Shown here: piece after piece, positions 6,789 through 61,909 of the stretch
Position numbering within the stretch: position 1 is the stretch's first letter
Layout: each line of letters begins with the position of its first letter
Assembly (NCBI GenBank): GCA_963849325.1
Contig: CAWKHF010000006.1
Span: 512,001-576,000 of the forward strand
DNA: 64,000 nucleotides
Reading direction: 5' to 3'
From: an uncultured Planctomycetota bacterium
Lineage (GTDB): Bacteria > Planctomycetota > Planctomycetia > Gemmatales > Gemmataceae
The notes under the pieces: model-generated
Databases searched by the model: none
What the model was told of the DNA's origin: nothing
What the model saw: the letters and a program-made list of their open reading frames with translations, nothing else
Made by a program: the position numbers and the translations under genes

Positions 6789-7751
6789 ATGGCGGTCGAG
6801 CGCATGCCCAATCCCAAACCGAAAAAGGACCGTGGCCGCCCTCATGGCACCCCACTCTTCCCGATCGGACAAGGACTATATGAGATCGTCCATGTCGATG
6901 CCTTCGACTGGCTCGCCCGCGCAACCCTGTTCCGTTCATGCGGTCGTCACCGATCCTCCTTATGGTCTCCTGGAATACACCCCCCGAGAGCTGGAGAAGA
7001 TGCGGAATGGGCGCGGAGGGGTTTGGCGCATTCCTCCCGCCTTTGACGGTTGCCGGCGAAAGCCTTTACCGCGCTTCACGGTGTTGACGCCTTCGGATCA
7101 GACGGCCTTGCGCTTGTTTTTTCAACGTCTGGCCGAACGCCTGATCCCGGTCCTCGTGCCTGGCGCCCATGTCTTCATTGCGACCAATCCCCTGGTTTCG
7201 CATTTGGTCTACGAACCGTTTCTCGCGGCCGGCTTTGAAAAACGGGGGGAGATCATTCGCCTTGTGTACACGCTGCGCGGGGGAGACCGCCCGAAGAATG
7301 CCCATACGGAGTTCGCGGAGGTCTCGGTGATGCCGAAATCCTGTTGGGAACCCTGGGGATTGTTCCGCAAACCGTGTGAGGGGCGCGTTCAAGACAATTC
7401 CGCAAATGGAAAACCGGCGGCCTGCGCCGCATCTCGGCGGACGAGCCTTTCAAGGACTTGATTGCCTCATCTCCCGCGCGGGGTTACGAGCGTGAAGTTG
7501 CGACGCATCCCTCGCTCAAGCCGCAACATTTCCTTCGCCAGCTCGTCCGCGCCGCCTTGCCCCTTGGCGAAGGCGTTATCCTCGATCCCTTCATGGGTTC
7601 GGGGTCAACGATTGCGGCCGCCGCCGCATGTGGATTGCGGAGTATCGGTCTGGAGATCGACACCACCTACTTTCAGATCGCTGCCAGGGCTATCCCCCTG
7701 CTGGCAGAATACGTCTCCCCTGAGAGTAAACGTAATGGTACGGAAAGATGA
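6789..7751 (+). CDS. Beta-class N4/N6 DNA methyltransferase, frameshifted near 6920 and 7400
   Basis: Motif IV TDPPYG near the N-terminus; HPSLKP and motif I LDPFMGSGST near the C-terminus. Confidence 0.88.
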
Positions 7752-8352
7752 CTTGGACGCATCGGTCGCTCTGCCTCCTGGCCTGGATGCGGGAGCAATT
7801 CGCCGAGCGATCGAGTACATGGAACGCGAGTTAGTCGATCTAGTCGAACTTTACGAGGAGCAAGCCAACGTGTTCAGCGCCGTGGTCGGTATCTTTGGCA
7901 CGAAAGCTTTGGACTCCGTCAGCAACTACGAGAAACACCGCCACCGAGACACAGCGCAACAACACTTCCCGGACTTGCGGCGTTGTGGCTCCGGCTCAAC
8001 TCCTTCTCCCCAGGAATCGCTGGAGAGCAAGGGGAGTAAGCGGCCCTGGTCTATCCAGTCCCATTATGATCATCCGGGCTGGTACATCGTTTGGCGCTAT
8101 CTTGTCGATCCCACGGAATCCCTCGAACCCGGTAAGCCCGTCGTCATCTGGCGCGTGGATGTCGTCTTTCTGGAGAAATCCGACTGGAAGTACGAGAAGA
8201 GCAGCGCCGGCGAGACGGGGGGTGGGAGGACGCACACGTTCGGAGTGAAGAACCCGGCGAAGAAGCTGCGCGAATGTGCGGTTTATCAGCGCAAGGATGT
8301 CGTTATCCGTGACGGCAAGCCCATTCCCCGCAATGGTAATGATAATTCCTGA
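7735..8352 (+). CDS. Putative PD-(D/E)xK restriction endonuclease
   Basis: FPDL...LESK motif; overlaps the 3' end of the methyltransferase gene. Confidence 0.6.
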   Translation: MVRKDDLDASVALPPGLDAGAIRRAIEYMERELVDLVELYEEQANVFSAVVGIFGTKALDSVSNYEKHRHRDTAQQHFPDLRRCGSGSTPSPQESLESKGSKRPWSIQSHYDHPGWYIVWRYLVDPTESLEPGKPVVIWRVDVVFLEKSDWKYEKSSAGETGGGRTHTFGVKNPAKKLRECAVYQRKDVVIRDGKPIPRNGNDNS

Positions 8353-8365
8353 CCTGCATCGTCTC

Positions 8366-9082
8366 TCAGGTATTCTCCAGCACTTGAGCTAGATGCAGCG
8401 CCCGCACGCCACTACCGCGGCGACGCAGACAGCCGGCGATGTTCATCAGGCAACCGGCGTCTGTGGCGACCACGGCCGACACCCCGGCCTTGTCGATAAA
8501 CGATGCCTTGTCCTGCACCATCGCCCCGCTGATGCCGGGATAACGCACCGCGAACGAGCCGCCGAAGCCGCAGCACTCGTCCGCACGCTCCAGCTTGACG
8601 TACTCCAGTCCCTTCACCCGCGCCAGCAAACGCTCCGGCTCCGTCAGCAGTCCCAGGCCGCGCAGATGGCAGGCCATGTGATACGTCACCCGGCCCTCGA
8701 AGCGCGCTTCCACGTCCTCCCGGCCGAGCACGTTCACAAGGAAATCCGACAGCTCGTGCGTCCGTCGCGCCAGGTCCAGGGCGCGCGGGTGCCAGACAGG
8801 GTCATCGTGGAACAATTCGGGATATTCTAATTTAATCATGGCCGCACACGAACCGGATGGGGCCACGACCGTTTGCCCGTTGTCGAAGGTGCGGAGCGTG
8901 TGACGTGCCAGTTCGCGGGCCTCGTTGTGATAGCCGCTGTTGAAGTGCGGTTGGCCGCAGCAGGTTTGCGCCTCGGGGAAATCCACGGCGACGCCCAGGC
9001 GGCGGAGCAGGCGCACCGTGGCCACGCCCACGTCGGGGAAAAGCGCGTCGCCCAGGCAGGTCACGAGCAGCGAGACGTTCAT
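8366..9082 (-). CDS. lutA: LutA/YkgE CCG-domain Fe-S protein
   Basis: VTCLGD, QTCCGQP, SGSCAAM, YHMACH, ECCGFGGSF, DAGCLMNI. Confidence 0.93.
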   Translation of the reverse strand: MNVSLLVTCLGDALFPDVGVATVRLLRRLGVAVDFPEAQTCCGQPHFNSGYHNEARELARHTLRTFDNGQTVVAPSGSCAAMIKLEYPELFHDDPVWHPRALDLARRTHELSDFLVNVLGREDVEARFEGRVTYHMACHLRGLGLLTEPERLLARVKGLEYVKLERADECCGFGGSFAVRYPGISGAMVQDKASFIDKAGVSAVVATDAGCLMNIAGCLRRRGSGVRALHLAQVLENT

Positions 9083-46722: not shown

Positions 46723-48229
46723 GGGTGGGCAGCTGTTACTTGGGTGGGTTTTTGGCTTGTCGCGCGATAGGTTGACTCCCAGGTCCAAAACGCACACGCC
46801 TTCTTCACACTCAGGAGTTGCATCATGGCTTCCCAGCACGGTCCTTCCCCAGTGGCCCCATCCCGCCAAGAACGCATCGAAGCCATCCTGCAACAGCTGC
46901 GACCCCAGATCGAACAGACCGTTCGCCAGCTTGTCGAAAGGGCCGTCGATGTTCCCGAGGCGGAGGAATTCGGCGCCATCGACTTCGAGTTCCGCGATGC
47001 CGGGCAGAAGCTGGTCAACCACGTCCGGCAAGCCAGCGTGGCGAGCCGGAAAAAAAGGGCTACGTAGGCTCCAGCGTACGCTGCACCTTGTGCGGGCACA
47101 CGGCCAAGTTTCATTCCTACCAGTCCCGGCGGCTGTTGACCGTGCATGGCGAGGTGCGTCTGGAGCGCGCCTATTCCTACTGTGCCCGCTGCCACCACAG
47201 TTGCATCCCCTACGACGAGGTACTGGGCTTGCACGATGCCATCAGCCCCGGCTTGCGGCCGCTGGTCTGTCTGGCCGGGACGATGGTGCCCTTCGGCGAT
47301 GCGTCCGAAGACATCCTCCGGCGTTTCTCCGGAGTGCGTCTGTCGGCTTCCTCGGTATTGCGCTGTACCCAAGGGGAGGGCGAACGCTTGCGGGCGCAGC
47401 AGAAAGCGGGGCCGATGGTCGAGCCGACGCAGCCCGAACTCCTCTGGACCGCACCGCGAAGGGAAGGGCAGCCCGCGGCCTATGTCGGCCTGGACGCCTT
47501 CAGCGTGCCGATGCAGGGGATCGGAGCAGGCAAGGCCGAGCATCGCATGCTCTACACCGCGTTGTTGTACACGCCGCAAAAGGAGCACAGCCGCTACCTG
47601 GTCGATTTCGACCTCGATGTGCTGGCGGAGCAAGTGGCGCGCAGGCCCGGGCGTTGGGCGTTACGCGGGTGAGTGACTTGATCGCCGTGACCGACGGCGG
47701 CAACGGCCTGGAAGAAGCCTTGCAGCGTCACCTGGCCGAGAACCTGACGACTATCCTGGATTGGTATCACGCCGCCGAACACCTCTGTGCCTTCGCCAAC
47801 GTCTGGCATGCCGGCGAGGAAACGGCCCGCGTGCTGTGGCAGCAGCAGGCCAAAGGAATCCTCTATGAGCAAGGGGGCGAAGCCTTGCTCACCTTTTTGC
47901 GGGCGTTGGACTTGCCGCCGGAGACATCGGCAGAGGTTCACGAGGAACTGCGGAAGCTGATCGGCTACTTCGAGAACAACCGGCATCGCACCGATTATCC
48001 GCGCTATCGTCAGAAGGGCTGGGACATCGGCAGTGGGCCGACGGAGGCGGGCTGCAAGATCATCGGTGAAAGGCTCAAGGGTTCGGGCATGCGCTGGGTA
48101 GAAGACGGTGCGGCAACCGTGGCGGCCCTACGGGCTTTATATGTCAGTGGCGGCAAGGTGTGGGACGGCTTCTGGTCGCAGCCTCACCGCGCCGCCGCGT
48201 AAAGTCACCCAAGTAAATGATTCACACCC
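46723..48229 (+). mobile_element. ISKra4-family insertion sequence (transposase 46825-48202)
   Basis: Imperfect TIR GGGTG...TTACTTGGGTG, 9-bp TSD TAGGTGCCG; TDGGNG, LDWYHAAEHL, IGSGPTEAGCK, GMRW; A7G slippery site at 47050. Confidence 0.9.
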
Positions 48230-48283
48230 TAGGTGCCGCGAGCCGAGCGGCACAGGGCGTCCGGCTCGGCTCGCCGGACCTAC
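48230..48283. repeat. GTAG-type REP doublet (target of the ISKra4 insertion)
   Basis: (g)taggtgccgcgagccgagcggcac ... gtccggctcggctcgccggacctac. Confidence 0.75.
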
Positions 48284-48348
48284 TTGCGTGTTTGCAATGT
48301 TCGCCTTACTGTGAACGTGACGAAGGATACTCAACCGGGAGCGTGACG

Positions 48349-50055
48349 ATGTGCCGACTTCTGGGCATCCTGTGCGCCGTTTCTCTCTTCTTACCTGTCC
48401 GCGCTGCATCCGCTCGCGGCCCATTCGCGGACCTCGTCGTGACGAACGCGCGGATCTGGACGGTCAACTCGGCCCAACCGGAGGCTGAAGCGTTGGCGAT
48501 CGTGCGCGATCGAATCGCGGTTGTCGGCAGCGGCGCCGACGTGCGACCGATGATCGGCCCGAAGACGCGCGTCCTCGACGCGCAGGGTCGGCGAATCGTA
48601 CCGGGGTTTTACGACAGTCACATTCACCTGCTCGGCTCGGGCCTTCGTCTCTCCGAGGTCGCCCTGAAGGACGCGGCGAACGAGGCCGAGTTCGGCAAGC
48701 GTTTGCAGGCGTTCGATCGCAAACTGCCGCGCGATCGCTGGCTGCTGGGCGGCGAGTGGGACCACGATCGCACCTTCGGCGGACGTCTGCCCACGGCCGA
48801 GCTAATCGACAAGTACGTCGCCGACCGTCCCGTGTTCCTGCGCCGCTATGACGGACACATGGCCGTCGTCAACACATCCGCCCTTCGCCTCGCCGGCATC
48901 ACCGCCGAGACGGCCGAGCCAGCCGGCGGCGTGATTTATCGCAAGCCCGGTTCGCGTCACCCCAGTGGCGTGCTGCGCGACAACGCCATGAGCCTGGTCG
49001 AACGTCTTGTCCCGGCGCCGACGGAGGAGCAGATCATCGAAGCCGTCCGCGCCGCCCTGGCCGAAGCGCGGCAAGTCGGCGTCACCAGCGCCCAGGACAT
49101 GGGCGGCAGCGCCGGCGCGATGCGGCGTCGCCTGTTTCGTCTGTATCAGCAGTTGGCCCGGCAGGGTCAGCTGACGATGCGTCTCGATCTCCGCTGGCCG
49201 TTGGCGGACTGGCGCAGTCTGGCGATGCTGGGCGTCGAGGCAAATTACGGAGACGACTGGGTGCGTATTGGCGGTGTCAAGGGCTTCGTCGATGGCTCGC
49301 TCGGCTCCAGCACGGCGAAGATGTTCGACTCCTACCGGAACGAGAAGGGCAGTACGGGCGTGTACGTGACGCCGCTCAACCGTCTGCGCGAATCCATCGA
49401 AGGCGCCGACGCGGCCGGGCTGTCGATTGCCGTACACGCCATAGGCGACCGCGCCAACGCCGAGCTGCTCGACATCTTCGCCGAGGTGGCGAAGAAGAAC
49501 GGGCCGCGCGATCGTCGTTTCCGCATCGAGCACGCCCAGCACTTACGGCCACGCGACTATGCACGCTTCAAGGAACTGGGCGTGATCGCGTCCCTGCAAC
49601 CGTACCACGCCATCGACGACGGCCGCTGGGCCGAGGGACGCATCGGGGCGGAGCGATGCGCTTCGTCCTATGCGTGCCGGTCGCTGCTCGACGCGGGAGC
49701 GCGGCTGGCGTTCGGCTCGGATTGGTCGGTGGCGCCGCTCAACCCGCTGCTGGGCATCGACGCCGCCGTCAATCGCCGCACGCTGGACGGCAAGCATCCC
49801 AAGGGCTGGTTCCCGCAGCAGAAGATCGGCGTCGCCGAGGCGATCGCGGCGTACACGCTCGGTTCGGCGTATGCGGCGTTTCAGGACAAGGATCGCGGCT
49901 CGCTGGAGGTGGGCAAACTCGCCGACTTCGTGGTGCTGTCGCGCGACATTCTGGCGGACTCGGAGCGCGATCGCATCGCTGAGACGAAGGTGCTGGCTAC
50001 CATCGTCGGAGGCAAGGTCGTTCACGAGAACAGTCGAGAAAAGGGCCGCCCTTGA
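48349..50055 (+). CDS. Amidohydrolase 3 (YtcJ-like) family protein
   Basis: PGFYDSHIH, KGFVDGSLGS, HAIGDRAN, RIEHAQ, FGSDW, GSLEVGKLAD. Confidence 0.93.
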   Translation: MCRLLGILCAVSLFLPVRAASARGPFADLVVTNARIWTVNSAQPEAEALAIVRDRIAVVGSGADVRPMIGPKTRVLDAQGRRIVPGFYDSHIHLLGSGLRLSEVALKDAANEAEFGKRLQAFDRKLPRDRWLLGGEWDHDRTFGGRLPTAELIDKYVADRPVFLRRYDGHMAVVNTSALRLAGITAETAEPAGGVIYRKPGSRHPSGVLRDNAMSLVERLVPAPTEEQIIEAVRAALAEARQVGVTSAQDMGGSAGAMRRRLFRLYQQLARQGQLTMRLDLRWPLADWRSLAMLGVEANYGDDWVRIGGVKGFVDGSLGSSTAKMFDSYRNEKGSTGVYVTPLNRLRESIEGADAAGLSIAVHAIGDRANAELLDIFAEVAKKNGPRDRRFRIEHAQHLRPRDYARFKELGVIASLQPYHAIDDGRWAEGRIGAERCASSYACRSLLDAGARLAFGSDWSVAPLNPLLGIDAAVNRRTLDGKHPKGWFPQQKIGVAEAIAAYTLGSAYAAFQDKDRGSLEVGKLADFVVLSRDILADSERDRIAETKVLATIVGGKVVHENSREKGRP

Positions 50056-50073
50056 ACTCCCATGCGGCCCTTA

Positions 50074-50162
50074 GAGGCACTAACCGAATGTGGCGGCACG
50101 TTTGTAACGTGCCGTACAATCCAACACGTTGAAAACGTGTTGCCACATTTTGTTAGAGCCTC
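50074..50162. mobile_element. MITE-like shell (GAGGC(A/T)CTAAC termini, TTA duplication) enclosing a TGTGGCGGCACGTT..AACGTGCC REP
   Basis: tta|GAGGCACTAACC...TGTTAGAGCCTC|tta. Confidence 0.7.
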
Positions 50163-50271
50163 TTAATCGTCACATTCGGCAATCTTTCCCGCATCCTCTT
50201 TTCTCGCCCCCAAGAAAATTGGGAAAAGTGGGTAACGCAACTCACCCTGAGCGACAATGAATAGGTGAGGA

Positions 50272-50916
50272 TTGACGCCCTGTTCCGAGCCGGAGCGAAG
50301 TCGGATGGGTGGAAATGCGTCCGATGGCGGACCCGAGACGACCGGCGGCGACCGGGCGGAGCACCTGCGCCGCGCGATCGACTATGCGATCAACTACGAG
50401 TATGAAACGCTGATTCGCCGCGTCGGTCTGCTGGTCTACCGCATCTGCGGCCGATTGAGGCGCGATGAGGTTGCGGATCGGTCCCAGGAGGTTCTCGGTG
50501 AGGCGGTGAAGCGCGCCTTGCAGGCGGCGGAGCGGTTCGATCCGGGACAGTCGGCGACCGCCTGGTTAATGGGTTTCGCTCTGCACATTCTGCAGGAGCA
50601 GCGGCGCGGCCGGGCGAAGCGCGTCGTCGCTCAGAGCGATCTCGGCGAGGAGGCGTGGCGGCAAACCCTGGCGGAATTGTGCGCCGCCGATACGGATGCC
50701 GCGACCATCCGTCTCGACGTCCGGCAGGCGTTGGCGCGTCTGGACGAAGGGCAGCGACGCATCGTGGAGTTGCGGTATTTCGATGGGTTGGATGGAGAAG
50801 AGTTGGCGCGAGCTGTGGACGCGCCGTCCGCGGGCGCCGCGCGGGTGCGGTTGGCGCGGGCGTTGCAAGCGCTGCGGCGACAATTTCGACTGGCTGAAGG
50901 CGAGGGGACGCCATGA
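50272..50916 (+). CDS. ECF-type sigma-70 factor
   Basis: Region 2 (DRSQEVL...RFDP...TAWL) and region 4 (LARLDEGQRRIVELRYFDGL..EELA...RVRLARAL). Confidence 0.85.
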   Translation: MTPCSEPERSRMGGNASDGGPETTGGDRAEHLRRAIDYAINYEYETLIRRVGLLVYRICGRLRRDEVADRSQEVLGEAVKRALQAAERFDPGQSATAWLMGFALHILQEQRRGRAKRVVAQSDLGEEAWRQTLAELCAADTDAATIRLDVRQALARLDEGQRRIVELRYFDGLDGEELARAVDAPSAGAARVRLARALQALRRQFRLAEGEGTP

Positions 50917-51482
50917 CGGAACACGAACAGGCCGCCGGCTGGGCCGAGACCGCCCTGCGCTACCTCGACGCCCTCGACGCCGGCGACATCAACACACTGG
51001 CCGCGCTGTGGGAGCAAGCGGCTGCGAATCCCGAGTTGGAGCAAGTGTTAGGGGAGCTGACGGATGGACTCGCCGCCGAGGAGGGGGCATGGCCGTCGTG
51101 GGAGGCCGACGCCGCCCGCGTTCGGGATCTGTTGCGCGAGCATTTACCCAGTGGCTTCTCCGCTCCGGAGGAACCGCCGCCGCTGACCGTCCGTGATGTG
51201 GCGGCTCGCTTGCAGTCCGATAATGCCGTGGCCGGGCGTCTGAGCGTGGCGGATCGGACGGCCAACAGCCGACTACTGGCCGACACGACGCCGGTGCCGG
51301 AAGAACTGGGTTTACCGCACTTCGAGAAGTGGAAGACGACGCTGGGTGTCAGCGCCAGTCCGCACTATTGGCGAGCCTTTCGGCAGACGGCGGTGCTGCT
51401 GGCGATGGGTCGATGTCAACAGGCCGGCGAGTTGGCCGCGGCGCGCCGAGCCGGCCGGACACCGAGGGGAGGGCGGTCATGA
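50913..51482 (+). CDS. Hypothetical soluble protein, putative anti-sigma factor
   Basis: ATGA overlaps with both neighbours; helical N-terminus; no TM segment. Confidence 0.6.
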   Translation: MTEHEQAAGWAETALRYLDALDAGDINTLAALWEQAAANPELEQVLGELTDGLAAEEGAWPSWEADAARVRDLLREHLPSGFSAPEEPPPLTVRDVAARLQSDNAVAGRLSVADRTANSRLLADTTPVPEELGLPHFEKWKTTLGVSASPHYWRAFRQTAVLLAMGRCQQAGELAAARRAGRTPRGGRS

Positions 51483-52144
51483 GTCGGGCCGACGATGGCG
51501 TCCTCGTCGCCGACGCGATCCGGCGGCTTCACGCCGCTGCCGGTCTGCCGTGGCCGCCCCCCGCCAACCCCGTCGTCACGCCGGTGCCGCTCGATACGCT
51601 CATCGCCAGCTATAACCTGGTGCATGAGGAGGTCCCCGAATTGAGCCACGCTTCCGCCGGGGCCTTCCTCGTGCGCTGGGGAGTACGGCGCCCCGAACTG
51701 CTGGAAGATTCGTCGCCGCTGGCCGGTTTCCTTTTCGCCAACGCACGCGGCGGCTACATTCTGGTCCGAGGCGATGATCCGCTGCCGCGCCGTCGGTTCA
51801 CGGCGGCGCACGAACTGGGGCATTATCTGCTGCACTTCCTGCCGCGATTGCAGGCGAAGCAAGATCCGGAAACGTATCTGCTCAAGGATGACAGGGACGA
51901 TATGGTGCGCGAGGAGGCGAAGGACGGGGATGTCAAGGCGTTGTCACTACCGGAGATGGAGATGGAGCGGCAGGCCAATCGATTCGCGGCCGAGTTGTTG
52001 ATGCCGGAGTCCGTGTGCCGGATTGCTTGCGTGCAATGCTTCCGCCCGACGCCGCGATTTCTGGAGCATCATCTCGCCGGTACTCTGCTTGTCAGTCGAG
52101 AGGCGGTGCGCTGGCGTTTGCGGGGGCTGGCGCTGACAACCTGA
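51479..52144 (+). CDS. ImmA/IrrE-family (M78) zinc metallopeptidase
   Basis: RRRFTAAHELGHY (HExxH), EMERQANRFAAELLMP, C-terminal VSREAVRWRL. Confidence 0.92.
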   Translation: MSRADDGVLVADAIRRLHAAAGLPWPPPANPVVTPVPLDTLIASYNLVHEEVPELSHASAGAFLVRWGVRRPELLEDSSPLAGFLFANARGGYILVRGDDPLPRRRFTAAHELGHYLLHFLPRLQAKQDPETYLLKDDRDDMVREEAKDGDVKALSLPEMEMERQANRFAAELLMPESVCRIACVQCFRPTPRFLEHHLAGTLLVSREAVRWRLRGLALTT

Positions 52145-52209
52145 CAAGCTCGGAGTGCCAGCGACGGGTAGCACCCGCGACGGGTCGAGGAACCAACGAG
52201 GCAGCGACG

Positions 52210-53241
52210 ATGAGCCTGGATTTCCTCCTGCACTACGGCGGCCGGCGTTTGCGGCAGTACGTCGAACAACCGCCGCTCGACGCGCCGGCCGACGACGACG
52301 ATGACGGAACGCCGATCGCCACGCTCGACCTGGAGGCGCCCCTCGACGCCTGGCAGCCGCGTTCGGTCGCCTCCGATGTGCTCGACCCGGACGCCGTGCC
52401 GCGGCGTTTCATCGACGGCTGTCACTCGGGACAGACGGTCGCCTGGCTGCAAGATGCACTCGGCCATCCCATCCCCGTCCGGTTAGCCGAGATCGGCGGC
52501 GTGTGCATGCAGTCTGAAGGCCGTTCCCTGCGCCGACAATTCGCCCATGTCGAACGGATCGTGTGCTTGATCGTCGATCCGTTCCCCTGGCACGAGGTTG
52601 AGAACTTCGCCGCGACGTTGGCGGAGATCGGCATGCGTCTCTTGCCGGCTTTGCCGCCGATGATCGAGGACGCACGCCAACTGATCTACGATTACGCGAG
52701 CATGGAGCAACGGACGTACACCCAAGCGCAAGTGGAGATGCGCATTCTGGAAGAGTTGGCGTTAGGTCAAGATCCCGAGGCGCTGAGTTTGGTTGATGGC
52801 CCACTCGGACGGCTGGAACACCCTCGGGCGATCGGGGTCATCAAGCAGCATCGAAAGAATTATCTGGGTCTGCATCCGCAGTGCTGGCAGGTGTTCTACC
52901 AACTCGAACCGGGGCAGCGCACGCCGGCGTTTCGGCTGGCCAGCCAAAGCGCGCCGCTGGTGTCGTGGTATTTCAAGCTGGACGGCGCACACGGCGCCAT
53001 GCCGAACTGGGGCATCGTTCGCATCGAAATCAGCTGCGCTCACTTCGAGCGCCACGATTGCGACTTTCGCTATCTCGATAGATTGTCGAACGCTCTGCTG
53101 CACCTGCGCTGCCGCCAGGGCAGCTATGCGCGAGCGCCGGTCTCGATGGAACCGATCGTGCGCGCGGAGGAGAGCCTGAAATCGCTCCTCACCGCGCCGG
53201 CCACGTTGGCCCAGCGGTTTTACCATCTGACCGGCTTGTGA
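52210..53241 (+). CDS. nurA: NurA-family nuclease (RNase H fold)
   Basis: RFIDG, LVDGPL, IGVIKQH, GQRTPAF, SWY, EPIVRAEESLK; directly upstream of HerA. Confidence 0.75.
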   Translation: MSLDFLLHYGGRRLRQYVEQPPLDAPADDDDDGTPIATLDLEAPLDAWQPRSVASDVLDPDAVPRRFIDGCHSGQTVAWLQDALGHPIPVRLAEIGGVCMQSEGRSLRRQFAHVERIVCLIVDPFPWHEVENFAATLAEIGMRLLPALPPMIEDARQLIYDYASMEQRTYTQAQVEMRILEELALGQDPEALSLVDGPLGRLEHPRAIGVIKQHRKNYLGLHPQCWQVFYQLEPGQRTPAFRLASQSAPLVSWYFKLDGAHGAMPNWGIVRIEISCAHFERHDCDFRYLDRLSNALLHLRCRQGSYARAPVSMEPIVRAEESLKSLLTAPATLAQRFYHLTGL

Positions 53242-53269
53242 GGCGGTTTCGACTTGGGAGTATTCAACG

Positions 53270-55088
53270 ATGAACGATGGAATCCCAACTGTGCAGCAAG
53301 CTCCATCTCGTTTGGTTTCCGTGTCGCCGTCTTCGGCCAAGGACGTCATCGGCAAGGTCGCCTCGCCGCCGCGACGCGAATCGACCAGCGAGGAGTTCTA
53401 CTTCTGGGTCGCGCCGGATACGCTCGTCGAAAAGTCGCAGATCGTCCGCACCGAGAGCGAGGTCGCCGGACAACGGTTGGTGTTTTACGGTCTCATCCGC
53501 GAGGTCTATCGCCAGAGCCGGCAGAGCGATCTCGGCGAGGAGTTTGACCGTCACGATGGCGACGTGGGTTATCAACCGCCCTTCGATTCGCCCGGTTTCA
53601 CCTACGCTGCCGTGACCATCCTGCGCACCGAACCCGCCGTGATGACTCCGCCGAAGGAAGGCAGCGATGTTTTCCTCGGCGGCGAGCGCGAGGCGTACAT
53701 GGCTTACGGCGCGGACGAGATCGAGAAACCGCTGGCCGTCGGTCTTGTCAAGAACGGCGGCACGCGCCTGATCGGCCCCGGCCGCATCGACCTCGACTAT
53801 TTGCTCGGCGCCAATGGCGGCCACCTGAACGTCAACGGCGTCGCCGGCCGCGGCACGAAATCGAGTTTGCTGTTGCACTTCAATTACCTGCTGCTGCGCG
53901 AGGCGCGCAAACAGCAGCGCGAACGCCCCGGCGACCGGGACCGACTGCGGATCGTGCCCATTATCCTCAACGTCAAAAACTTTGATCTCTTCCACATCGA
54001 CCGCCGCAGCACGCGCTACGATCCGGCCAAGCACGCCGCCGACTGGCACGCGCTGGGCATCGACGATCCGGCCCCGTTCCAGAACGTGTCTTTTTATGCT
54101 CCGCAGTTGCCCGGCCAGGACATACCTGTCAACACCGGGCGGCCGAAGTCCGACGTGAAGGCGTACAGTTGGAGCCTGCGCGAAGTGATCGAGCGCGGGC
54201 TGCTGAGTTACCTGTTCGCCGAGGACGACGTGCGCAACGCCAACTTCGGCACCCTGGTCCTCGATATCGAGAACTACCTCACGCAAGAGCGATTGGAACG
54301 CGACAACACCCGTCTGCGCAAGCTGAAAACCGGCCCCGACGTGCCGTGCCATTTTGATGGGCTGCTCAAATGGGTGGAGGAATTGGCCCTCAACGAGCAA
54401 GGCACTATCAATCCCCTCAAGGGCAAACATCACTCGGCGACCCTGCGCAAACTCTACCGTCGCCTGCTGCGACTGGTCTACGAGGGCAACGGCGTGCTGC
54501 GCCGCGATGCCCAGCAGGGCAAGCCACTCGACGTTTGCGCCCGCGATTCGCGCGACCCGATCGTCGTCGATCTCAACGGCCTGTCGGCCGTGCCGGCGCT
54601 GCAGCGCTTTGTCGTCGCCACCATCTTCCGCCAACTGGTCGAGGAACGCACCGGCTCGCACGCTCAGCGCGGCCTCATCTATCTCGTCACGCTCGATGAA
54701 TTGAACCGCTTCGCCCCGAGCGGCGCGCACGATCCCATCACCGAATTGATCGAGCGCGTGGCGGCGGAAATGCGTTCCCAGGGCATTATTCTCCTGGGGG
54801 CGCAGCAACAAGCGTCGCTGGTGTCGGGCCGCGTCATCGAGAATGCCGGCATCCGGGCGCTGGGCAAGAGCGGTTCGCTCGAGTTGAGTCATAAGGTCTG
54901 GGGAGGTCTGAGCGAATCGGCGCGTCGCAAGGCGTCGATGCTGCTGCCGGAGGAGAAGCTGCTCATCCAGGACAGCTTTCGCGAGCCGCTGCTGGTGAAA
55001 ATCCCGTTCCCGCCCTGGGCGGTGCGGGGCCGAAGCCGTCGAGGAGGTGCCAGCCGCGGGGAGCAGGGTCGAACTGGAGGATTTGTGA
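53270..55088 (+). CDS. herA: HerA-like ATPase/DNA translocase
   Basis: N-terminal HAS-barrel-like region, HLNVNGVAGRGTKS Walker A, LDELNRFAP Walker B, RSQGIILLGAQQ; probable frameshift in the last codons (given ORF runs to 55165). Confidence 0.85.
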
Positions 55089-55181
55089 CGAAGACGGACC
55101 TACGGACTTTGCATCCGGGCCGAGACTTCTGCGATAATACGTCAAATTGTGTTTGCGGGCGATGAGGAGAAAGGCGAAGGC

Positions 55182-56414
55182 ATGCGTATCCTGCACACGG
55201 CGGACTGGCACCTGGCCGACCGACTTGGCCGCATCGATCGCACCGACGACCTGCGTCGAGCGGTGGAGCGCGTGGCCGACTATTGCCGCTCGGAAAAAGT
55301 CGATGTCCTTCTCGTTGCCGGCGACCTGTTCAGCGAGCTGGCGGGACCGGACGCGCTGCGCGAGTCGATCCGTCATTTGCAGGAGACGTTTGGGCCGTTC
55401 CTGCGCGAGGGCGGAACGATCCTCACACTCACCGGCAATCACGATAAGGAGAACTTCTGCCAGACCCTGCGTCATGCCATGAACCTGGCGGCGCCCGGCG
55501 TCAAACCGGGAGCACTGGCCCCGGCCGGCCGGCTCTATCTCGCCACCGGCCCCGCGCTGCTGCAACTGCTGGATCGGGATGCGCAGAAGGGCGTTCAGTT
55601 CCTCCTCATGCCGTATCCGACACCCACGCGCTACCTCCAGGACGAGGTGGCCCAGCGCTATCAGGGGCTTGACGAGAAAAACCGTCACCTGATGGCGGCC
55701 TACACTAGCCGCCTCAACGAATTGCAGACCGACCCGCGTTTCGACCCGCGCTTGCAGACGGTGCTGGCCGCTCATATCCACGTCGAGGGCAGTTTATTGA
55801 AAGACGAGTCGCCCTTTCGGATTACCGAACAGGAGGATGTGCTCTTCAAGCCTGCCGACGTACCGACCGGCTTCGCTTACATCGCCCTGGGCCACATCCA
55901 CAAGGCGCAGTGTCTGGGAGGTCAGAAACACGTCCGTTACTGCGGCAGCGTTGAGCGCTTGGACTTGGGCGAGAGTAACTACCAGAATGGCGTCGTCCTC
56001 TTCGACCTCGGGCCGGAGGGCTTGCGAGGCGAGCCCCAGGTATTGCCGCTGGAGGCAACGCCGATTTACGAGGTTCCCATCCATTCGCCGCAAGACGAAA
56101 TCCCTGGCCTACGCCAGCGCTACCCCGACTCTCAGAAAGCCTTGGTGCGCATCGTCTGTACCTACACCGCCGGGGTCGATAACCGCGAGGAGATCCTGCG
56201 CAAGTTGGATGACATCTTCCCGCGCTGGTACGATCGAAAAATTATCGAGAAAAACGCGCTGAGCGAGACCCTTGCCGGCCCGCAGGGTCCGGCGAAGAGC
56301 TTCGAGGAAACGGTGCGCGATTATCTGCGGCAGGAGCTGACCAACCATGCCGATGACTTCCGCGAAGCCGTGCTGGCACGGGCCGAAGACCTTCTGAAGG
56401 CGGTGGACGCATGA
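55182..56414 (+). CDS. sbcD: Mre11/SbcD nuclease
   Basis: LHTADWHL, AGDLF, GNHD, AH, LGHIH. Confidence 0.95.
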   Translation: MRILHTADWHLADRLGRIDRTDDLRRAVERVADYCRSEKVDVLLVAGDLFSELAGPDALRESIRHLQETFGPFLREGGTILTLTGNHDKENFCQTLRHAMNLAAPGVKPGALAPAGRLYLATGPALLQLLDRDAQKGVQFLLMPYPTPTRYLQDEVAQRYQGLDEKNRHLMAAYTSRLNELQTDPRFDPRLQTVLAAHIHVEGSLLKDESPFRITEQEDVLFKPADVPTGFAYIALGHIHKAQCLGGQKHVRYCGSVERLDLGESNYQNGVVLFDLGPEGLRGEPQVLPLEATPIYEVPIHSPQDEIPGLRQRYPDSQKALVRIVCTYTAGVDNREEILRKLDDIFPRWYDRKIIEKNALSETLAGPQGPAKSFEETVRDYLRQELTNHADDFREAVLARAEDLLKAVDA

Positions 56415-59400
56415 TCCCCCAACGCATCCGACTCAAAGGCTTCCTGTGCTACAAGGACGAACAGGAAATCAACTTCGACAGCAACGCCACGCTCTGGATG
56501 CTGTCCGGACTCAACGGCAGTGGCAAGTCGAGCATCTTCGATGCTGTCACCTACGCGCTCTTCGGCCATCATCGCGGCGGCAGCCAGCACGCTGTCGAGC
56601 TAATCAACAAAGACGGCGACGGCTTGGCCGTCGAATTCGATTTCCGCCTCGATGAGCGCGTTTACCGCGTGCGGCGGACCCTCCGCCGCAAGGTGCGCGG
56701 CGCACCGAGCCCGACGCAGCAGATCTATCGTTACGAGCCGGGCGGCGAGCACGACTGGGTCGCCGTGGAGGGAACGAATTACAGTAGCGAATTCCAGAAC
56801 TGGATAAGAGATAAAATTGGTCTTACATATGATACATTCACCTCCTCCGTCCTGCTGCTTCAGGGCAAGGCGGACAAATTGCTCGATTCGAAGCCGGAAG
56901 GACGGCGGGCCGTGCTGGCCAGCATCGTCGATCTGGAGCGCTACAAATGCTTGCACGAGAAGGCGGACGCCAAGCGGAAAGAGCTGAAAGGAAAGCTGGA
57001 GGGTCTGTCCGACCGTTTGGCGGCGCTGCCGGAGGTCAAGGCGGAGGAGGTGGCGGCGGCGGAAGAGAGCATCCGAACGGCGGAAACGTCCCGCGAACAG
57101 GCCCGCGCGGAGGTCGAGCGTTTGCGCGAGATGGAACGACAAGCCCGCGCCTGGATGGAGCTGCAAAGCAAACTGGCGGCCGCTCGGCAGCGCTGGCAGC
57201 GCCGGACAGTTGCTCGAGGACGCCGCCGCCATTGAACGCGGCGTGGATCGGCTGCGCGAGCTGCGCGAGGTGCTGCCGCGTCTGCGCGAGATCGTCAAGC
57301 AACGCGGAACGATCCGCGACGTGGACCTCGCCAGCAAGGGACTGCTGCAAGAAAAGGACAAAACGGCGGAACAGCTGGCGCGGTGCGACAGCGCGCTGGG
57401 GCAGGAGCGCGACAAACGAACGACGCTGCAAACGCGCATGGAGGCGGAGGAGAAACAGCGGCAAGAGTTGGAGCCGCAATTGCGGAGCGTCATCGCCGGG
57501 GTGGAGAAGTTGACGGAGTACGAACGGCAGTCCGCGGAGCTGGCGCGCATCCGCGAGGAACTCGCCCTGTTGCCCGCCGACGCCACCGAGGAAGTGAAGC
57601 GAGCGCGAACGACGTGCGAAGGACTCGCCGCGCTGGCGCAACTCCTCCCCCAGCTCGTTCGCTTTCACGAACACCGCGAAGGGCTTCGGCAGGCGCTGGA
57701 GCGCGAACAGACGGCGAAACAACGTCTCGCCCAGGTCGAGACGCGCGGCAAGCACTGGAACGCCGAGCTGAAGCGCCTGGGACCGTTGGTGAAGGACGCC
57801 GATGGCGCGGCGCGGCAGGCCAGGGACCAAGAGACCGAAGCGCGCACCTTGCTCCAGCAGGCGCGGGACAGTCTGCGCGAAATCACGCATCTCGACGGCG
57901 CCAAGCGTTGCCGACACTGCGGCTTGGAGCTGACGCCGCAGCACCTCCACGAGGAGAAACGCCGCCGCGACGAGGAGGTGAGGCGGGCCGAGGAGCGACT
58001 CCAAAAAGCCGCTGCCGTTCTCCAGGCGGCGCGGCATGAGGAACAGCGATTGCGCGAAGACGAGAGCGGCGCGCAAAAGAACTACCAGGAGGCGCGCGAA
58101 GAATACCGCGAAGCGCAGAGCCAGGTAAACCAGGCCCGCGCCGACGTCACACGCTTGCAAGGTGATTGCGCCCGCGCTCACGACGACTTGCCGGACGAGC
58201 ATCGCCGGCGAATCGGGGCGGCGCCGGTCGCCGACTGGCTGAAGACGGAATATCCCACGCCGAGCGATCTCGAGCAGCTGCGCGCCGAGGCGGCCGGCCA
58301 TTCCGCGGCGCGGCAACGCTTGCACAAGGCCGAAGACGTCCTGAAGCAGTGGACCAAGCTCCACACGCAAGAGTCCGACAAGCTCGCCACCCTCGACCGC
58401 CTGCAAGCCGGCCTGCCTGCTGACCGCGAGGCGGTGCGGCGGATGCACACCGATCTCAGCGTCCGCCTCGAAACGCTTGACAAAGACCTCAAGGCCAAGC
58501 GCGGCCAGCGGAAAGACGCCGACGCGGAGATCGAACGCTGGACGCGCGAACGCGAGCGTTGGCAGGGACAGCTCAACCGCATCGACCTGGAGCTGAAGAA
58601 AAAGGAACTGGATGGCCAGAAGGCTCGGGAATTGATCGCCGTCAACCAGAAGGCGTTGCCGGTTTCGTGGCAGGCGGCCGCCGAGACCGCCGGCGCCGCC
58701 GAGTATAACCAGTGGGACAAGGAACGCGCCGACCTGGAAGCGTCCGGCGCCGATTCGCGCGGCAAGGAACTCCTGGAAGCACGCCATAAGCTCGACTTGT
58801 TTCGACAGGACAAGGAATCGCTGGAGTCTCAGCAAGATGCCTTCGCGGCCGAGGCGCGCCGCGATCCGGCGGACATCAAGGCGGAACTGGACCAGGCCAG
58901 GCAGGCGGAAGCGCAGGGCGACAAGGGCTTGACCGAGGCGCGGCAACAGCTCGCTCTCTTGCACGGCTACTGCAAACAGCGCGAGCAGATTGGCGAGGAG
59001 AGCATTCGACTGGAAGGCGAATGGTCCCTGTACAAGATCCTGGCCGAACTGCTTGGCAAGGACCGCCTGCAACTGTACCTGGTGCGGCAGGCGGAAAAGC
59101 AGGTGGTGGAGTACGCCAACGCCGTGCTCGATCGGCTCTCCGGCGGCCAGCTCTACTTGAAATTGAAAGGCGAAGCCGACGGTGAGGGTGGAATCCGACC
59201 GCGCGCTCGACCTGGAGGCGTACAATCGCGGCACCGGCGAGAAGCCAATCAACGTCGCCTTCCTCAGCGGCAGCCAGAAGTTCCGCGTCGCCGTCAGCCT
59301 GGCGCTGGGCATCGGCCAGTACGCCAGTCGGCAGCATCGACCCATCGAGTCGGTGATCATCGACGAGGGTTTCGGCTGTCTCGACAGCCAGGGCCGACAG

Positions 59401-59550
59401 GTCATGATTCAGGAATTGCAAAACCTCCGCAGCCAGATGCGCTGCATCCTGCTCGTCTCGCATCAGGAGGAGTTCGCCGAGGCGTTCTCCGACGGCTATC
59501 ACTTCGAGCTGGAGTCCGGGGCCACGAAGGTACGGCGCGTCCAGAAATGA
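56411..59550 (+). CDS. sbcC: Rad50/SbcC SMC-like ATPase, frameshifts near 57200 and 59180
   Basis: GLNGSGKSS, Q-loop LLQG, coiled coil with CRHC zinc hook (~57909), LSGSQKF, IIDEGFGCLD, LVSH. Confidence 0.93.
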
Positions 59551-59612
59551 AGCCGCCGCTGGCTTTGCGGAACTTTTCGTGTCCCGTTGGGTTCAAAGAA
59601 CAGCGGACCGAA

Positions 59613-59670
59613 CCGAGCCGCGACCGTCAGGGAGCGGAGAATACCTCGCTCCCTGACGGTCGCGGCTCGG
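59613..59670. repeat. REP palindrome GAGCCGCGACCGTCAGGGAGCG family
   Basis: ccgagccgcgaccgtcagggagcg / cgctccctgacggtcgcggctcgg. Confidence 0.85.
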
Positions 59671-59709
59671 ACGGTATCTGGTTTCGCTCCTGCTTGCGAA
59701 AGGTCTACC

Positions 59710-60660
59710 ATGCGTATCCTCCGCTCCTTCGCGTTCACCGCGGGGATTGTGCTGTTGCTCGCCGGATTCACGGCTTGCCGGAAAGGCCACTCGGTCTCGC
59801 AAGCTCCGGAGACGGCCGACACCGGCACCAAATCCAAGCCGATAACGGTGGCCGTCAACAAGCCGGCTGCCCCCGTGAATCCGGGGCCGACGGCTCCCGT
59901 GAAAGTGGAGAAAGCCCCGGCCCCGGACCTGAATCCCCTCAACATGGAAGTGACCGCCCTGGAGACACTCAGTCAGTTCAAACTCACGCGGGAGCAGCTC
60001 CAACAGCTCGCCAAGCTCGCTCCGATGACGGCGCGGAAACCGGCCCCTCCCCGGCCAACCAAGGTGAGCGAGGAATATCACAAGGCGCTCAAGGACCTGC
60101 GCGAAGCGCTGCTCGACGACAACGAGGTTCGCGTCGCCGACCTGACGCTGACCCTGGAGGAGCTGCGCGACAAGGAAGACCCCGACTTCGATGACGTGGA
60201 GATCACCGACGCGGCCCGGCGGCACACCCCGGAAGTCCTGCGCAGCCTCGGCGCTCGGCAACTGATGGGATACCTCTCCGACTTCGCCGAGGAATTCCCC
60301 GACCCACGCGAGAAGCTGACGGACGCCTTCGAGGACGTTCGCAAATTGCCCGCCAAGGAATGGGAGGAGCTGCGCGATGAGGTGGCGGGACAGGTTGGCT
60401 GGCTGGCGGCCGGGCTCGACATCGCGGCGGAGGGCAGGGTGCGCAATCGCGCCGCGGATTTGCTCAACCGTGTGCGCCGCCTCAAAGACGACGAATACAC
60501 CGTCCAGCGGGAGGAACTGGAGCGAGAGGTGCAGGGCATCGTTGGCAACATCGGGCCGACCGACGTTATCCGTCATTTCGCCGAGCGCTCGCTGGCCGAG
60601 TTGCTTGCCAATCCCCGTCTCGCCGCCGCCGTGGAAGGTCTCTTGAAGAAGGCCGAGTGA
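59710..60660 (+). CDS. Hypothetical lipoprotein
   Basis: MRILRSFAFTAGIVLLLAGFTAC lipobox-like leader. Confidence 0.75.
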   Translation: MRILRSFAFTAGIVLLLAGFTACRKGHSVSQAPETADTGTKSKPITVAVNKPAAPVNPGPTAPVKVEKAPAPDLNPLNMEVTALETLSQFKLTREQLQQLAKLAPMTARKPAPPRPTKVSEEYHKALKDLREALLDDNEVRVADLTLTLEELRDKEDPDFDDVEITDAARRHTPEVLRSLGARQLMGYLSDFAEEFPDPREKLTDAFEDVRKLPAKEWEELRDEVAGQVGWLAAGLDIAAEGRVRNRAADLLNRVRRLKDDEYTVQREELEREVQGIVGNIGPTDVIRHFAERSLAELLANPRLAAAVEGLLKKAE

Positions 60661-60666
60661 CGCCGA

Positions 60667-61848
60667 TCAGGACGAGACCTCCAGGCCGAGCAGCGTCAGG
60701 TCGTCCGGCTGCTCGCTGGCGCCGAAGAGGTCGCGGGCCAGGCGGTCCACGAAGTCGTGGATCGGCAAGTCCCGATGCCGGGCGGCACAGGCGAGCAAAC
60801 TCGCCGTCCCCGGTGGATGATCCTCATATCGTCCCGTATCGATGCCGTCGCTGTACAGCAGCACCTTGTCGCCGGGTTTCAGGGTGTAGGTATGGGCGGG
60901 GAAGACGGCATCGACCACTCCCAGCAACAAACCCTCCTGCCGCCAGAACACCGGCTCGCCCTCGCGCGGCACGTGCAGCGGATAGGGGTGTCCCGCCCGC
61001 GCGAAACGGAACGTGCCTTCCTTGTGGTTGTACAGACCATAGGCCATGGTGATGAACGGGTTCTCGGCCAGCTGCTGGTCGAGCAGGTCTTTGTTGAGCC
61101 GCTGCAACACTTCTCCCGGCGGCACCAGACGGTAATGCTGGCCGAACACCTCCTTGGCCCGCACTCCCTTCTTGACGAAGATGGTCAGCAGGCTGGCGGG
61201 TACGCCGTGGCCCATCGCATCGGCGACGTACAGGCCGACGTGTTGCTCGTCGAGGCGAAACACGTCGTAGAAGTCGCCGCCGACGCGATCGCGCAGAAGA
61301 TAATGGACGGCGAAGCGCGTCCGCGACACGTCCGGCAGCGTTTGCGGCAGGAAGCTCGATTGGATACGCTGGGCCAGCTGCAGCTCATGGTCGATCTGCT
61401 GGTGGAGTTGCTGGAGGCGTTTGTTGATGCGATGGACCTCGGCAGTCTTGCCGGCGAGGCGGTCGTGTGCGTCCTTGATGCGGAGCAGCGCCCGTGCTTG
61501 TGCGAGCAATTCCCCGCGAGCGAACGGCCGCAACAAACAGACGTCGGCGCCGGCCTCGAAGCCGGCCAGGCGGGCCGCATCTCCCCGATCCTCCGTCAAA
61601 TACAGAATCGGCACAAATCGGGCATCCAGACGCTCGCGCAGGCGGCGACACAGGTCGAGGGCCGGACCCGAACACCGGCCACCCTCGATCGCAATCAACT
61701 GGTAGTCTCCCGGCCCGTCCGGGTCCGGGGTGTCCAACAGGTGCCCGGTCAGATCGCAACCGATGCCCGCGAGAAGGTGGCGCAGCTCGGCCAGCGTGCC
61801 CGGCTGATTGGCGCAGACGAGAATTCGGGGTAGTCCGTTGACGCTCAT
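60667..61848 (-). CDS. REC + PP2C (SpoIIE/RsbU-like) phosphatase
   Basis: AQRIQSSFLP, VGGDFYD, ADAMGHG, RAGHP, YSDG, DDLT. Confidence 0.92.
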   Translation of the reverse strand: MSVNGLPRILVCANQPGTLAELRHLLAGIGCDLTGHLLDTPDPDGPGDYQLIAIEGGRCSGPALDLCRRLRERLDARFVPILYLTEDRGDAARLAGFEAGADVCLLRPFARGELLAQARALLRIKDAHDRLAGKTAEVHRINKRLQQLHQQIDHELQLAQRIQSSFLPQTLPDVSRTRFAVHYLLRDRVGGDFYDVFRLDEQHVGLYVADAMGHGVPASLLTIFVKKGVRAKEVFGQHYRLVPPGEVLQRLNKDLLDQQLAENPFITMAYGLYNHKEGTFRFARAGHPYPLHVPREGEPVFWRQEGLLLGVVDAVFPAHTYTLKPGDKVLLYSDGIDTGRYEDHPPGTASLLACAARHRDLPIHDFVDRLARDLFGASEQPDDLTLLGLEVSS

Positions 61849-61909
61849 GCGTGCCTCCCGCAACCGCCCCACTATACGCTCCGCCTCGCCCTGCGCTAAG
61901 ACGAGTGGC

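Follow-up and report, generated by a model that had tools for sequence, protein, structure and literature searches.

Within a 64,000-nucleotide (nt) stretch of DNA from an uncultured soil planctomycete of the family Gemmataceae (assembly GCA_963849325.1, contig CAWKHF010000006.1, positions 512,001 to 576,000; here called the window), seven genes on the plus strand, spanning positions 50272 to 59550, make up a cassette that joins a regulatory trio to a set of four DNA-end-processing enzymes. The trio consists of an extracytoplasmic function (ECF)-type sigma factor, a probable anti-sigma factor (ORF2), and an M78 metallopeptidase of the ImmA/IrrE/CapP type, and it is followed by nurA, herA, sbcD, and sbcC. 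We conclude that these seven genes form a genuine unit, one that is conserved and can be transferred, and that they combine known kinds of parts in a new way. The best explanation overall, to which we assign a probability of roughly 60%, is that of a mobile, self-regulated cassette in which a sigma switch would control a machine that degrades DNA ends, with a role in defense slightly favored. A sharper version is that the M78 peptidase would cut a cytoplasmic anti-sigma factor in response to foreign or broken DNA and that the released ECF sigma factor would turn on a Mre11-Rad50-HerA-NurA nuclease, an inducible antiphage or antiplasmid system that has spread among soil phyla; we put this version forward tentatively, at less than even odds.

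The arrangement recurs widely. A locus survey in which one genome per species was scanned with a HerA alignment yielded 80 related loci, from Planctomycetota, Chloroflexota, Armatimonadota, Acidobacteriota, Actinomycetota, Dormiibacterota, and other groups, which were analyzed with tblastn and then with profile searches; the profile counts omit five loci in which the open reading frame (ORF) caller gave no herA. By tblastn, the gene order recurred across the 80 loci. Where at least 3 kb of upstream sequence was available, the genes for sigma, ORF2, and M78 were all present at 36 of 54 loci; the remainder comprised one locus with an ORF2 remnant and M78 (L001), three with M78 only (L003, L004, and L064), and 14 with none of the three. 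Of the 58 loci whose downstream sequence reached 4.3 kb or more, 50 had both nurA and sbcD/sbcC. All seven genes, in the same order, were present at 30 of the 48 loci that could be evaluated on both flanks, and these 30 belong to Planctomycetota, Chloroflexota, Armatimonadota, Acidobacteriota, and Actinomycetota. An arrangement shared by this many loci, with each species represented by one genome, is beyond chance. An earlier reading of the window, made from the sequence only, had tied the regulatory trio to nurA-herA(-sbcDC), and the 36 loci bear out this linkage in related genomes.

The history of herA points in the same direction. In a HerA tree, every full trio fell within one clade of 56 rows, whereas the sister clade of 17 rows held none; the split between the two clades had 100% local support, and phyla were interleaved within the trio clade. 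Members of the sister clade (Dehalococcoidia-type Chloroflexota, Dormiibacterota, Binatota, Myxococcota, and one actinomycete) carry the four-gene core without the trio. This division of the tree, together with the interleaving of phyla, indicates that the trio and the effector genes travel together and cross phylum boundaries. Within the family of the window's host, a search of 151 genomes detected herA of this type in 23, of which 21 are among the 88 high-quality genomes, and the cassette is thus accessory. Genes for SbcD were found in 127 of the 151 genomes, with two sbcD matches in 17 of the 23 herA carriers compared to 7 of the 128 other genomes, which argues that the cassette usually brings its own SbcCD to stand beside a resident one. 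The module can therefore be called "self-contained," as had been proposed, in the sense that it has been transferred between phyla as a unit and in most carriers comes with an additional sbcD. Only one sbcD each was found in the window's genome and in the other three genomes of its genus; in two of these congeners (L003 and L004), it lies on another contig. Two carriers are cultured. Zavarzinella formosa DSM 19928 (L011) carries the complete seven-gene set and a second sbcD elsewhere, and an ISL3 transposase gene lies just downstream of the set; Limnoglobus roseus PX52 (L063) has sigma-ORF2-M78-nurA-herA without adjacent sbcDC. With these two strains, the switch and the choice between repair and defense are directly testable.

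In the window itself, the seven genes are closely packed. The co-orientation, the ATGA overlaps, and the short gaps noted in the sequence-only reading were all present: the overlaps lie at 50913 (sigma/ORF2), 51479 (ORF2/M78), and 56411 (sbcD/sbcC), and the gaps are of 65 bp (52145 to 52209), 28 bp (53242 to 53269), and, between herA and sbcD, less than 100 bp. A pattern scan of little power detected no terminator at 52144 to 52210. Across positions 49800 to 60800, a sigma-70 promoter scan gave 2 hits versus a shuffle expectation of 1.2, and the terminator scan gave 6 versus 8.8; neither result stands out from what shuffled sequence yields. The six identities that the same reading had named (ECF sigma factor, M78 peptidase, NurA, HerA, SbcD, and SbcC) hold, on the evidence set out below.

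The two central effectors, NurA (52210 to 53241) and HerA (53270 to 55088), were identified through family profiles, together with a model of the NurA fold, after direct searches of Pfam, NCBIfam, and PADLOC with the two candidates had come back empty (E values up to 0.01 for PF09376; no DUF87). Relatives of both are abundant, mostly in Gemmataceae metagenome bins, and nearly all lack a protein name; HerA relatives named by the Joint Genome Institute (JGI) are called "DNA helicase HerA-like ATPase." Leads from a protein atlas scored 0.96 for NurA-bearing clusters and 0.96 to 0.98 for HerA-type clusters. A NurA profile built from 45 sequences matched Deinococcus radiodurans NurA (7f6d_H) at an E value of 8.4e-28 and Thermotoga TM1739 (1zup) at 9.7e-11, and the Pfam NurA family (PF09376) was matched by 7 of the 45 relatives (best E value, 2.5e-5), with no match for the window protein itself. 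The AlphaFold model of the window's NurA had a predicted local distance difference test score (pLDDT) of 93.2, and its fold matched those of 7f6d_G (5.1e-14), 1zup_A (1.7e-11), Sulfolobus NurA 2ygk_A (1.9e-6), and the NurA-like chain of TdpAB, 8wfd_G (1.0e-4). The match to 7f6d_G confirms the NurA/RNase H-like fold that had been expected of the ORF at 52210. All 45 sequences have D196 and G197, and at least 90% of them keep D69, G70, and E181; the conserved acidic "DG" motifs I and II, as named in passages of a review, are both present.

For HerA, the family profile matched D. radiodurans HerA (7f6d_B) at 6.6e-60 over profile positions 21 to 591 of 606, and K197-S198 of the P-loop and D476-E477 of Walker B are invariant. 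The P-loop (residues 190 to 199) is deviant in having T directly before K, a feature that is invariant in 18 relatives. SbcD, the Mre11-type nuclease (55182 to 56414), was matched directly by TIGR00619 (5.2e-31; 108.3 bits, with a cutoff of 77.65) and by Metallophos (3.6e-11). SbcC, the Rad50-type ATPase (56411 to 59550), is read in three frames: its N-terminal piece matched TIGR00618 (5.1e-46) and AAA_23, its C-terminal piece matched TIGR00618 (7.8e-16) and SbcC_Walker_B, and the middle piece shows a CxxC zinc hook, so that the parts of a Rad50-type protein (N-terminal Walker A, coiled coil with its hook, and C-terminal signature plus Walker B) are all present, spread over the three frames. 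The defense models of PADLOC gave no match for NurA or HerA, a match at only 0.0079 for SbcD, and generic SMC-like matches (mad3 and LmuB) for the SbcC pieces; among the seven proteins, only the peptidase matched a specific model (capP). These comparisons establish what the four effectors are, and by analogy to their relatives they would act on DNA ends.

The sequence-only reading had missed frame breaks in sbcC and herA. The three sbcC frames run from 56411 to ~57205, from ~57198 to ~59180, and from ~59182 to 59550, with breaks near 57200 and 59185. The 3' end of herA is also frame-shifted: the frame changes near 55030 to 55040, the last ~20 codons lie in another frame, and the homologous C terminus ends at 55088 and not at 55165, where the ORF as read ends. 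Three frame breaks within 4.2 kb could mean that this copy is a decaying pseudogene cluster with genuine frameshifts in herA and sbcC, and some congeners are truly reduced (L003 and L004 have only M78-nurA-herA, and L001 lacks the sigma gene and half of ORF2). We consider decay quite improbable. In the same assembly, the essential gene rpoC is read in three frames (G000:C1:338780-343005), broken in the same way as the cassette genes, and the assembly is only 84.69% complete despite having just 14 contigs. The three pieces of sbcC keep all motifs and contain no internal stops. Moreover, 49 of 55 relatives have an unbroken sbcC, and the six broken ones all come from one record series of metagenome-assembled genomes (MAGs). 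Because rpoC is broken likewise and sbcC is intact in 49 of 55 relatives, the herA and sbcC breaks are most likely assembly indels and not decay. Another gene of the assembly that appears to be split is an amidohydrolase-like one at C6:660407-662066. The assembly as a whole seems rich in indel errors, a point to bear in mind for any gene called from it. A search for sequencing runs that contain the stretch listed one soil-metagenome DNA run (X1; share, 0.07) and no RNA run; in X1, the matching contigs were 151 to 191 nt in length, and none spanned 55030, 57200, or 59185.

The cassette is headed by the ECF-type sigma factor gene (50305 to 50916, within an open frame that extends from TTG 50272). 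In the 214-amino-acid (aa) frame, the Pfam families Sigma70_r2 (residues 47 to 115), Sigma70_r4_2 (residues 148 to 201), and Sigma70_ECF were matched, with no other domains, and TIGR02937 was matched at 57.2 bits (cutoff, 42.9). With regions 2 and 4 present and regions 1 and 3 absent, the protein has the composition of an ECF (group 4) sigma factor. In alignment with two related loci (L005 and L006), ATG 50305 is more likely to be its start than TTG 50272, since a promoter-like block that is conserved in both loci occupies positions 50231 to 50258. This block, which lies on the plus strand 5' of the sigma gene, consists of a GTAAC -35-like element, a spacer of ~17 to 18 nt, and a CAAT -10-like element, and we regard it as a candidate promoter with an AAC-containing -35 element of the ECF type.

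A broader form of this motif, TGT[AC]AC-N16-19-[CG]AA, emerged on inspection and was then counted against control segments and shuffles. It was present 5' of the sigma gene at 16 of 29 loci, whereas none of 87 control coding segments had it and 300 shuffles gave a mean of 0.33 and a maximum of 2. The window's own copy begins with GGTAAC and so fits only a relaxed pattern. Counts of exact-word dyads over all upstream regions did not exceed those in shuffles, and the form of the motif seen in the window, with CGA[CT] as its -10 element, was confined to close relatives. When the whole genome was scanned for the window's promoter variant, a single other site came up, C6:660308, which we dismissed because it falls within a coding frame, at its 3' end. 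The motif also occurs in the gap between herA and sbcD at six Fimbriiglobus/Gemmata-type loci and one Armatimonadota locus; the loci named with a second copy at this position are L028, L037, L039, L042, L050, and L025. Its presence there suggests that, at such loci, sbcDC is transcribed separately but under the control of this sigma factor too, and the occurrence of one motif in both places is the pattern that a sigma-dependent regulon would be expected to produce.

ORF2 (50913 to 51482) had been left unrecognized in the sequence-only reading and listed as a putative anti-sigma factor. The first part of that description stands: ORF2 had zero family matches in Pfam, NCBIfam, and PADLOC, no helix-turn-helix (HTH) family among the Pfam results, and nothing above noise (E value, 0.1) when its profile was compared with the solved structures in the PDB. 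It is conserved in 37 aligned relatives, and its model (pLDDT, 87.0) consists of two helical domains with no membrane segment. The second part is favored by a controlled complex prediction, itself a model. When sigma and ORF2 were predicted together, the score was 0.82 (0.80, 0.83, and 0.82 in the individual runs), compared with 0.01 for the best control; of 157 solved complexes, 116 reach the same mark, as do 2 of 215 mismatched pairs. The runs had at least 72% of contacts in common, and the pLDDT of the partner was at least 73. The predicted interface lies between residues 4 to 78 of ORF2 and residues 40 to 111 and 169 to 202 of the sigma factor, that is, regions 2 and 4. Such contacts match the geometry of an anti-sigma domain, and ORF2 is probably an anti-sigma factor, a soluble protein of two helical domains. 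In the prediction, sigma is bound by the N-terminal domain of ORF2; the conserved C-terminal domain is presumably a target or a sensor.

The third regulatory gene (51479 to 52144) encodes the M78 zinc metallopeptidase. The protein matched Peptidase_M78 (PF06114) at 5.3e-14 (52.5 bits; cutoff, 22), and its best match in PADLOC was capP (2.9e-19), over profile positions 43 to 150 of 242 only. The family profile matched CapP (7t5t_A) at 3.8e-12, over CapP residues 57 to 150 of 291, and IrrE (3dte_A) at 1e-7; only a few residues follow the matched part before the protein stops. Residues H111, E112, H115, and E163, which are the HExxH motif and the downstream glutamate characteristic of M78, are invariant in 36 sequences. 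The 221-aa protein comprises the peptidase domain and an N-terminal extension, without the HTH-GAF tail that would give it the architecture of CapP and IrrE. In that peptidase-HTH-GAF architecture, according to passages of a preprint, the groove between domains binds single-stranded DNA (ssDNA). The same passages describe ImmA/ImmR, IrrE/DdrO, and CapP/CapH, all of the known M78 members that stand next to a regulator, as cleaving that regulator.

Two loci shed light on what the peptidase may act on. In an actinomycete MAG (L064), an XRE-type HTH protein gene and an M78 gene (7650 to 8743) lie directly 5' of nurA-herA-sbcD-sbcC and replace sigma and ORF2; ORF2 is not an XRE-type HTH protein, and the L064 protein is (HTH_3, 2.4e-13). 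As judged from its gene order, this locus shows that the regulator is exchanged as a module. Genes for AbiEi_2 and HIRAN-domain proteins lie just upstream of the L064 regulator pair. In the congener L001, a single open frame (7818 to 8888) encodes the C-terminal domain of ORF2 together with M78, a natural fusion; the sigma gene and the N-terminal half of ORF2 are missing, and a 985-aa ORF with no Pfam family occupies the place of the sigma gene. The HTH/M78 swap and the ORF2-M78 fusion argue that the peptidase acts on the middle protein. Formally, the peptidase could instead process sigma, NurA, HerA, or a phage protein, or ORF2 could be freed by another cue, with the peptidase serving as an effector or a safety device. 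This alternative draws on the congeners L003 (8249 to 11797) and L004 (8107 to 11773), in which only M78-nurA-herA is present, with sigma/ORF2 and sbcDC not found adjacent, so that M78 has been retained beside nurA-herA where sigma and ORF2 were undetected; it also draws on the absence of the CapP/IrrE sensor domains from the peptidase. Nevertheless, we regard it as improbable, given the cleavage of the adjacent regulator described for the known family members in the passages cited above, the classical HTH partner at the same position in L064, and the ATGA overlap of ORF2 and M78 in the window, a pair that is fused in L001.

Taking these parts together, we propose that ORF2, acting as a cytoplasmic anti-sigma factor, would keep the ECF sigma factor inactive by placing its N-terminal helical domain between regions 2 and 4. 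The M78 peptidase would cleave ORF2 upon a signal, for which DNA that is broken or single stranded is the most plausible candidate, and the freed sigma factor would transcribe the operon from its own TGTAAC-N17-CAAT promoter, resulting in positive autoregulation. SbcCD, of the Mre11-Rad50 type, would then recognize and open DNA ends, and a HerA hexamer with a NurA dimer would thread and digest the duplex. The regulatory layer of this scheme is largely conjectural; its best-backed parts are the predicted sigma/anti-sigma pairing and the candidate promoter, which are well supported by the modeled complex and by the motif counts. The terms "damage-inducible" and "LexA-independent," which the sequence-only reading had applied to the module, would follow by analogy to ImmA, IrrE, and CapP. 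LexA is encoded elsewhere in the window's genome, as is a large PDDEXK_1-bearing open frame, and RecC was not found in this genome (84.69% complete); the cassette is therefore an addition to an SOS-type system and not a replacement for it.

Several observations weigh against the cassette as we read it. The frame breaks in herA and sbcC could be real. A Foldseek search with the ORF2 model gave a best E value of 0.53, with no anti-sigma family or fold recognized. Comparison of ORF2 with the cytoplasmic anti-sigma domain of PupR gave a Z score of 6.0 and a root mean square deviation of 2.5 over 52 residues, no better than unrelated rows; the likeness to PupR is within the noise for helical bundles. 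The high score of the sigma-ORF2 complex may be owed in part to solved sigma/anti-sigma complexes of other families. The peptidase lacks the HTH-GAF region that CapP and IrrE reportedly use for ssDNA, and its trigger, like its action on ORF2, is a proposal. With respect to function, the support for defense from gene neighborhoods is suggestive and comes without a control set. D. radiodurans NurA-HerA has been studied as a repair enzyme, in the passages available of the report on it (PMC9960219). Finally, in the window's genome and the three congeners with a single sbcD, the SbcCD of the cassette may itself do the housekeeping work.

As the role of the cassette, we slightly favor destroying linear DNA that invades the cell, from phage or plasmid, over chromosome repair because the cassette is an accessory element that has crossed between phyla, in most cases doubles a housekeeping sbcD, and is often found next to defense genes. 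The last point comes from a screen of 97 flanking ORFs of 16 loci against Pfam, with no control set. Defense-type or mobile neighbors were found at about half of the 16 loci: a WYL regulator with a Cas3-like helicase, Cas1, a Cas4-Cas1 fusion, a DUF3375 protein with an SMC-like ATPase (a pair that we take to be Wadjet-like), DUF87 ATPases, DUF4276 with AAA_21, an integrase, and transposases. Three other loci had DUF2397, Uma2/HEPN, and AbiEi_2.

The same anatomy and the same switch could also serve repair of the cell's own chromosome, as an inducible end-resection module feeding RecA, comparable to the archaeal set and to the IrrE/DdrO regulon. Such a role is possible but, in our judgment, rather unlikely. 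It accords with the nearest solved relatives, D. radiodurans NurA and HerA, which the available passages describe as end-resection enzymes with DNA damage survival assays; with the parallel between the four-gene set and the archaeal operon, as described in parts of two reports (PMC3326311 and PMC2288612); with the single sbcD of the window's genome and three congeners, and the failure to find RecC in a genome that is 84.69% complete; and with the 6 of the 16 screened loci that had only housekeeping or unnamed neighbors. A repair module is harder to reconcile with the patchy occurrence of herA in 23 of 151 family genomes, with the transfer of the cassette between phyla, with an sbcD that is the second match in 17 of 23 carriers, and with CRISPR and other defense genes as frequent neighbors. 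In addition, the best score of the peptidase was to the defense regulator CapP, and the genome already has LexA, plus the PDDEXK_1 frame, possibly that of an AddAB-type enzyme.

The flanks of the window's cassette are shared with the congener L001, and no defense gene is among them. Upstream (48217 to 50055) lies an Amidohydro_3-type gene that is 78% identical in the congener L001. Downstream (59587 to 60660) lies a gene for a 357-aa protein without a name, 69% identical in L001, followed on the opposite strand (60667 to 61872) by a 401-aa ORF; L001 has a SpoIIE-family phosphatase gene in that place, a likeness of position only.

The sequence-only reading knew of no description of this combination of genes, and that judgment stands in part. 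In a full-text literature search, which did not cover the FtsK-HerA paper of Iyer et al. (2004), we found no description of the cassette or of an anti-sigma factor cleaved by an M78 peptidase. Likewise, the main text of the ECF reclassification paper, to which our search was confined, contains none of the terms M78, IrrE, SbcC, HerA, "DNA repair," and metallopeptidase. Against this, passages of a preprint by Lau et al. (10.1101/2022.04.27.489752) mention capH, capP, and a sigma factor together: 24 systems of the cyclic-oligonucleotide-based antiphage signaling system (CBASS) type encode capH and capP alongside a sigma-70-family factor, and 15 encode a capH-capP fusion. By description alone, these resemble the trio and the L001 fusion, respectively; the effector there is CBASS and not NurA-HerA-SbcCD. 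The passages of that preprint that matched our search terms offer no mechanism for the CBASS-linked sigma factor.

If our reading is correct, it would have consequences beyond this locus. The four-enzyme end-resection set, which has been regarded as archaeal, would be a stable, transferable cassette in many mesophilic bacteria. The action of a cytoplasmic ImmA-type protease on a soluble anti-sigma factor would add a mode of ECF sigma activation. Furthermore, the protease module would be one that can be wired either to a repressor, as in L064, or to a sigma/anti-sigma pair.

Among known systems, D. radiodurans NurA-HerA (7F6D, 7WRW, and 7WRX; PMC9960219) is the nearest solved relative of both proteins. 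There too, nurA and herA are neighbors, and, in alignment, the D. radiodurans and cassette HerA proteins have in common the deviant P-loop with T before K. The identity of the cassette NurA to D. radiodurans NurA is low (18% in the fold alignment). In D. radiodurans, the pair forms a two-gene operon, and the available passages mention no linked SbcCD or regulator, whereas here the pair lies between the trio and sbcDC. Bacterial NurA-HerA has been characterized only in Deinococcus and Thermus, according to passages of a review. The herA-mre11-rad50-nurA operon of thermophilic archaea, as described in the parts of the reports cited above for the archaeal set, places the same four enzyme families side by side. 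The cassette differs from it in its gene order (nurA-herA-sbcD-sbcC), its bacterial-type NurA and HerA, its mesophile-type soil host, and its dedicated sigma switch, and archaeal NurA structures match the NurA model far more weakly than the bacterial ones do (2ygk, 1.9e-6; 3tai, 2.1e-2).

The regulatory half of the cassette has its own counterparts. CapP/CapH, IrrE(PprI)/DdrO, and ImmA/ImmR likewise place an M78 peptidase with an intact HExxH motif beside a small regulator at the head of an operon. The cassette is unlike them in that the partner is a predicted sigma binder and not an HTH repressor and in that the peptidase has no HTH-GAF tail; the proposed output would be release of an activator, whereas in the CapP, IrrE, and ImmA switches it is loss of a repressor. 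TdpAB, Sir2-HerA, and DUF4297-HerA, in the passages available (PMC11291478, PMC11472057, and PMC11514289), pair a HerA hexamer with a nuclease or other effector against invading DNA, but these consist of two genes each and include neither SbcCD nor a sigma switch. In Myxococcus xanthus, the ECF sigma/anti-sigma pair DdvS/DdvA switches on a CBASS-CRISPR island, according to passages of two reports (PMC11506125 and PMC6061681). DdvA is described there as a transmembrane anti-sigma factor, whereas ORF2, as modeled, has no membrane segment and is paired with a cytoplasmic M78 peptidase.

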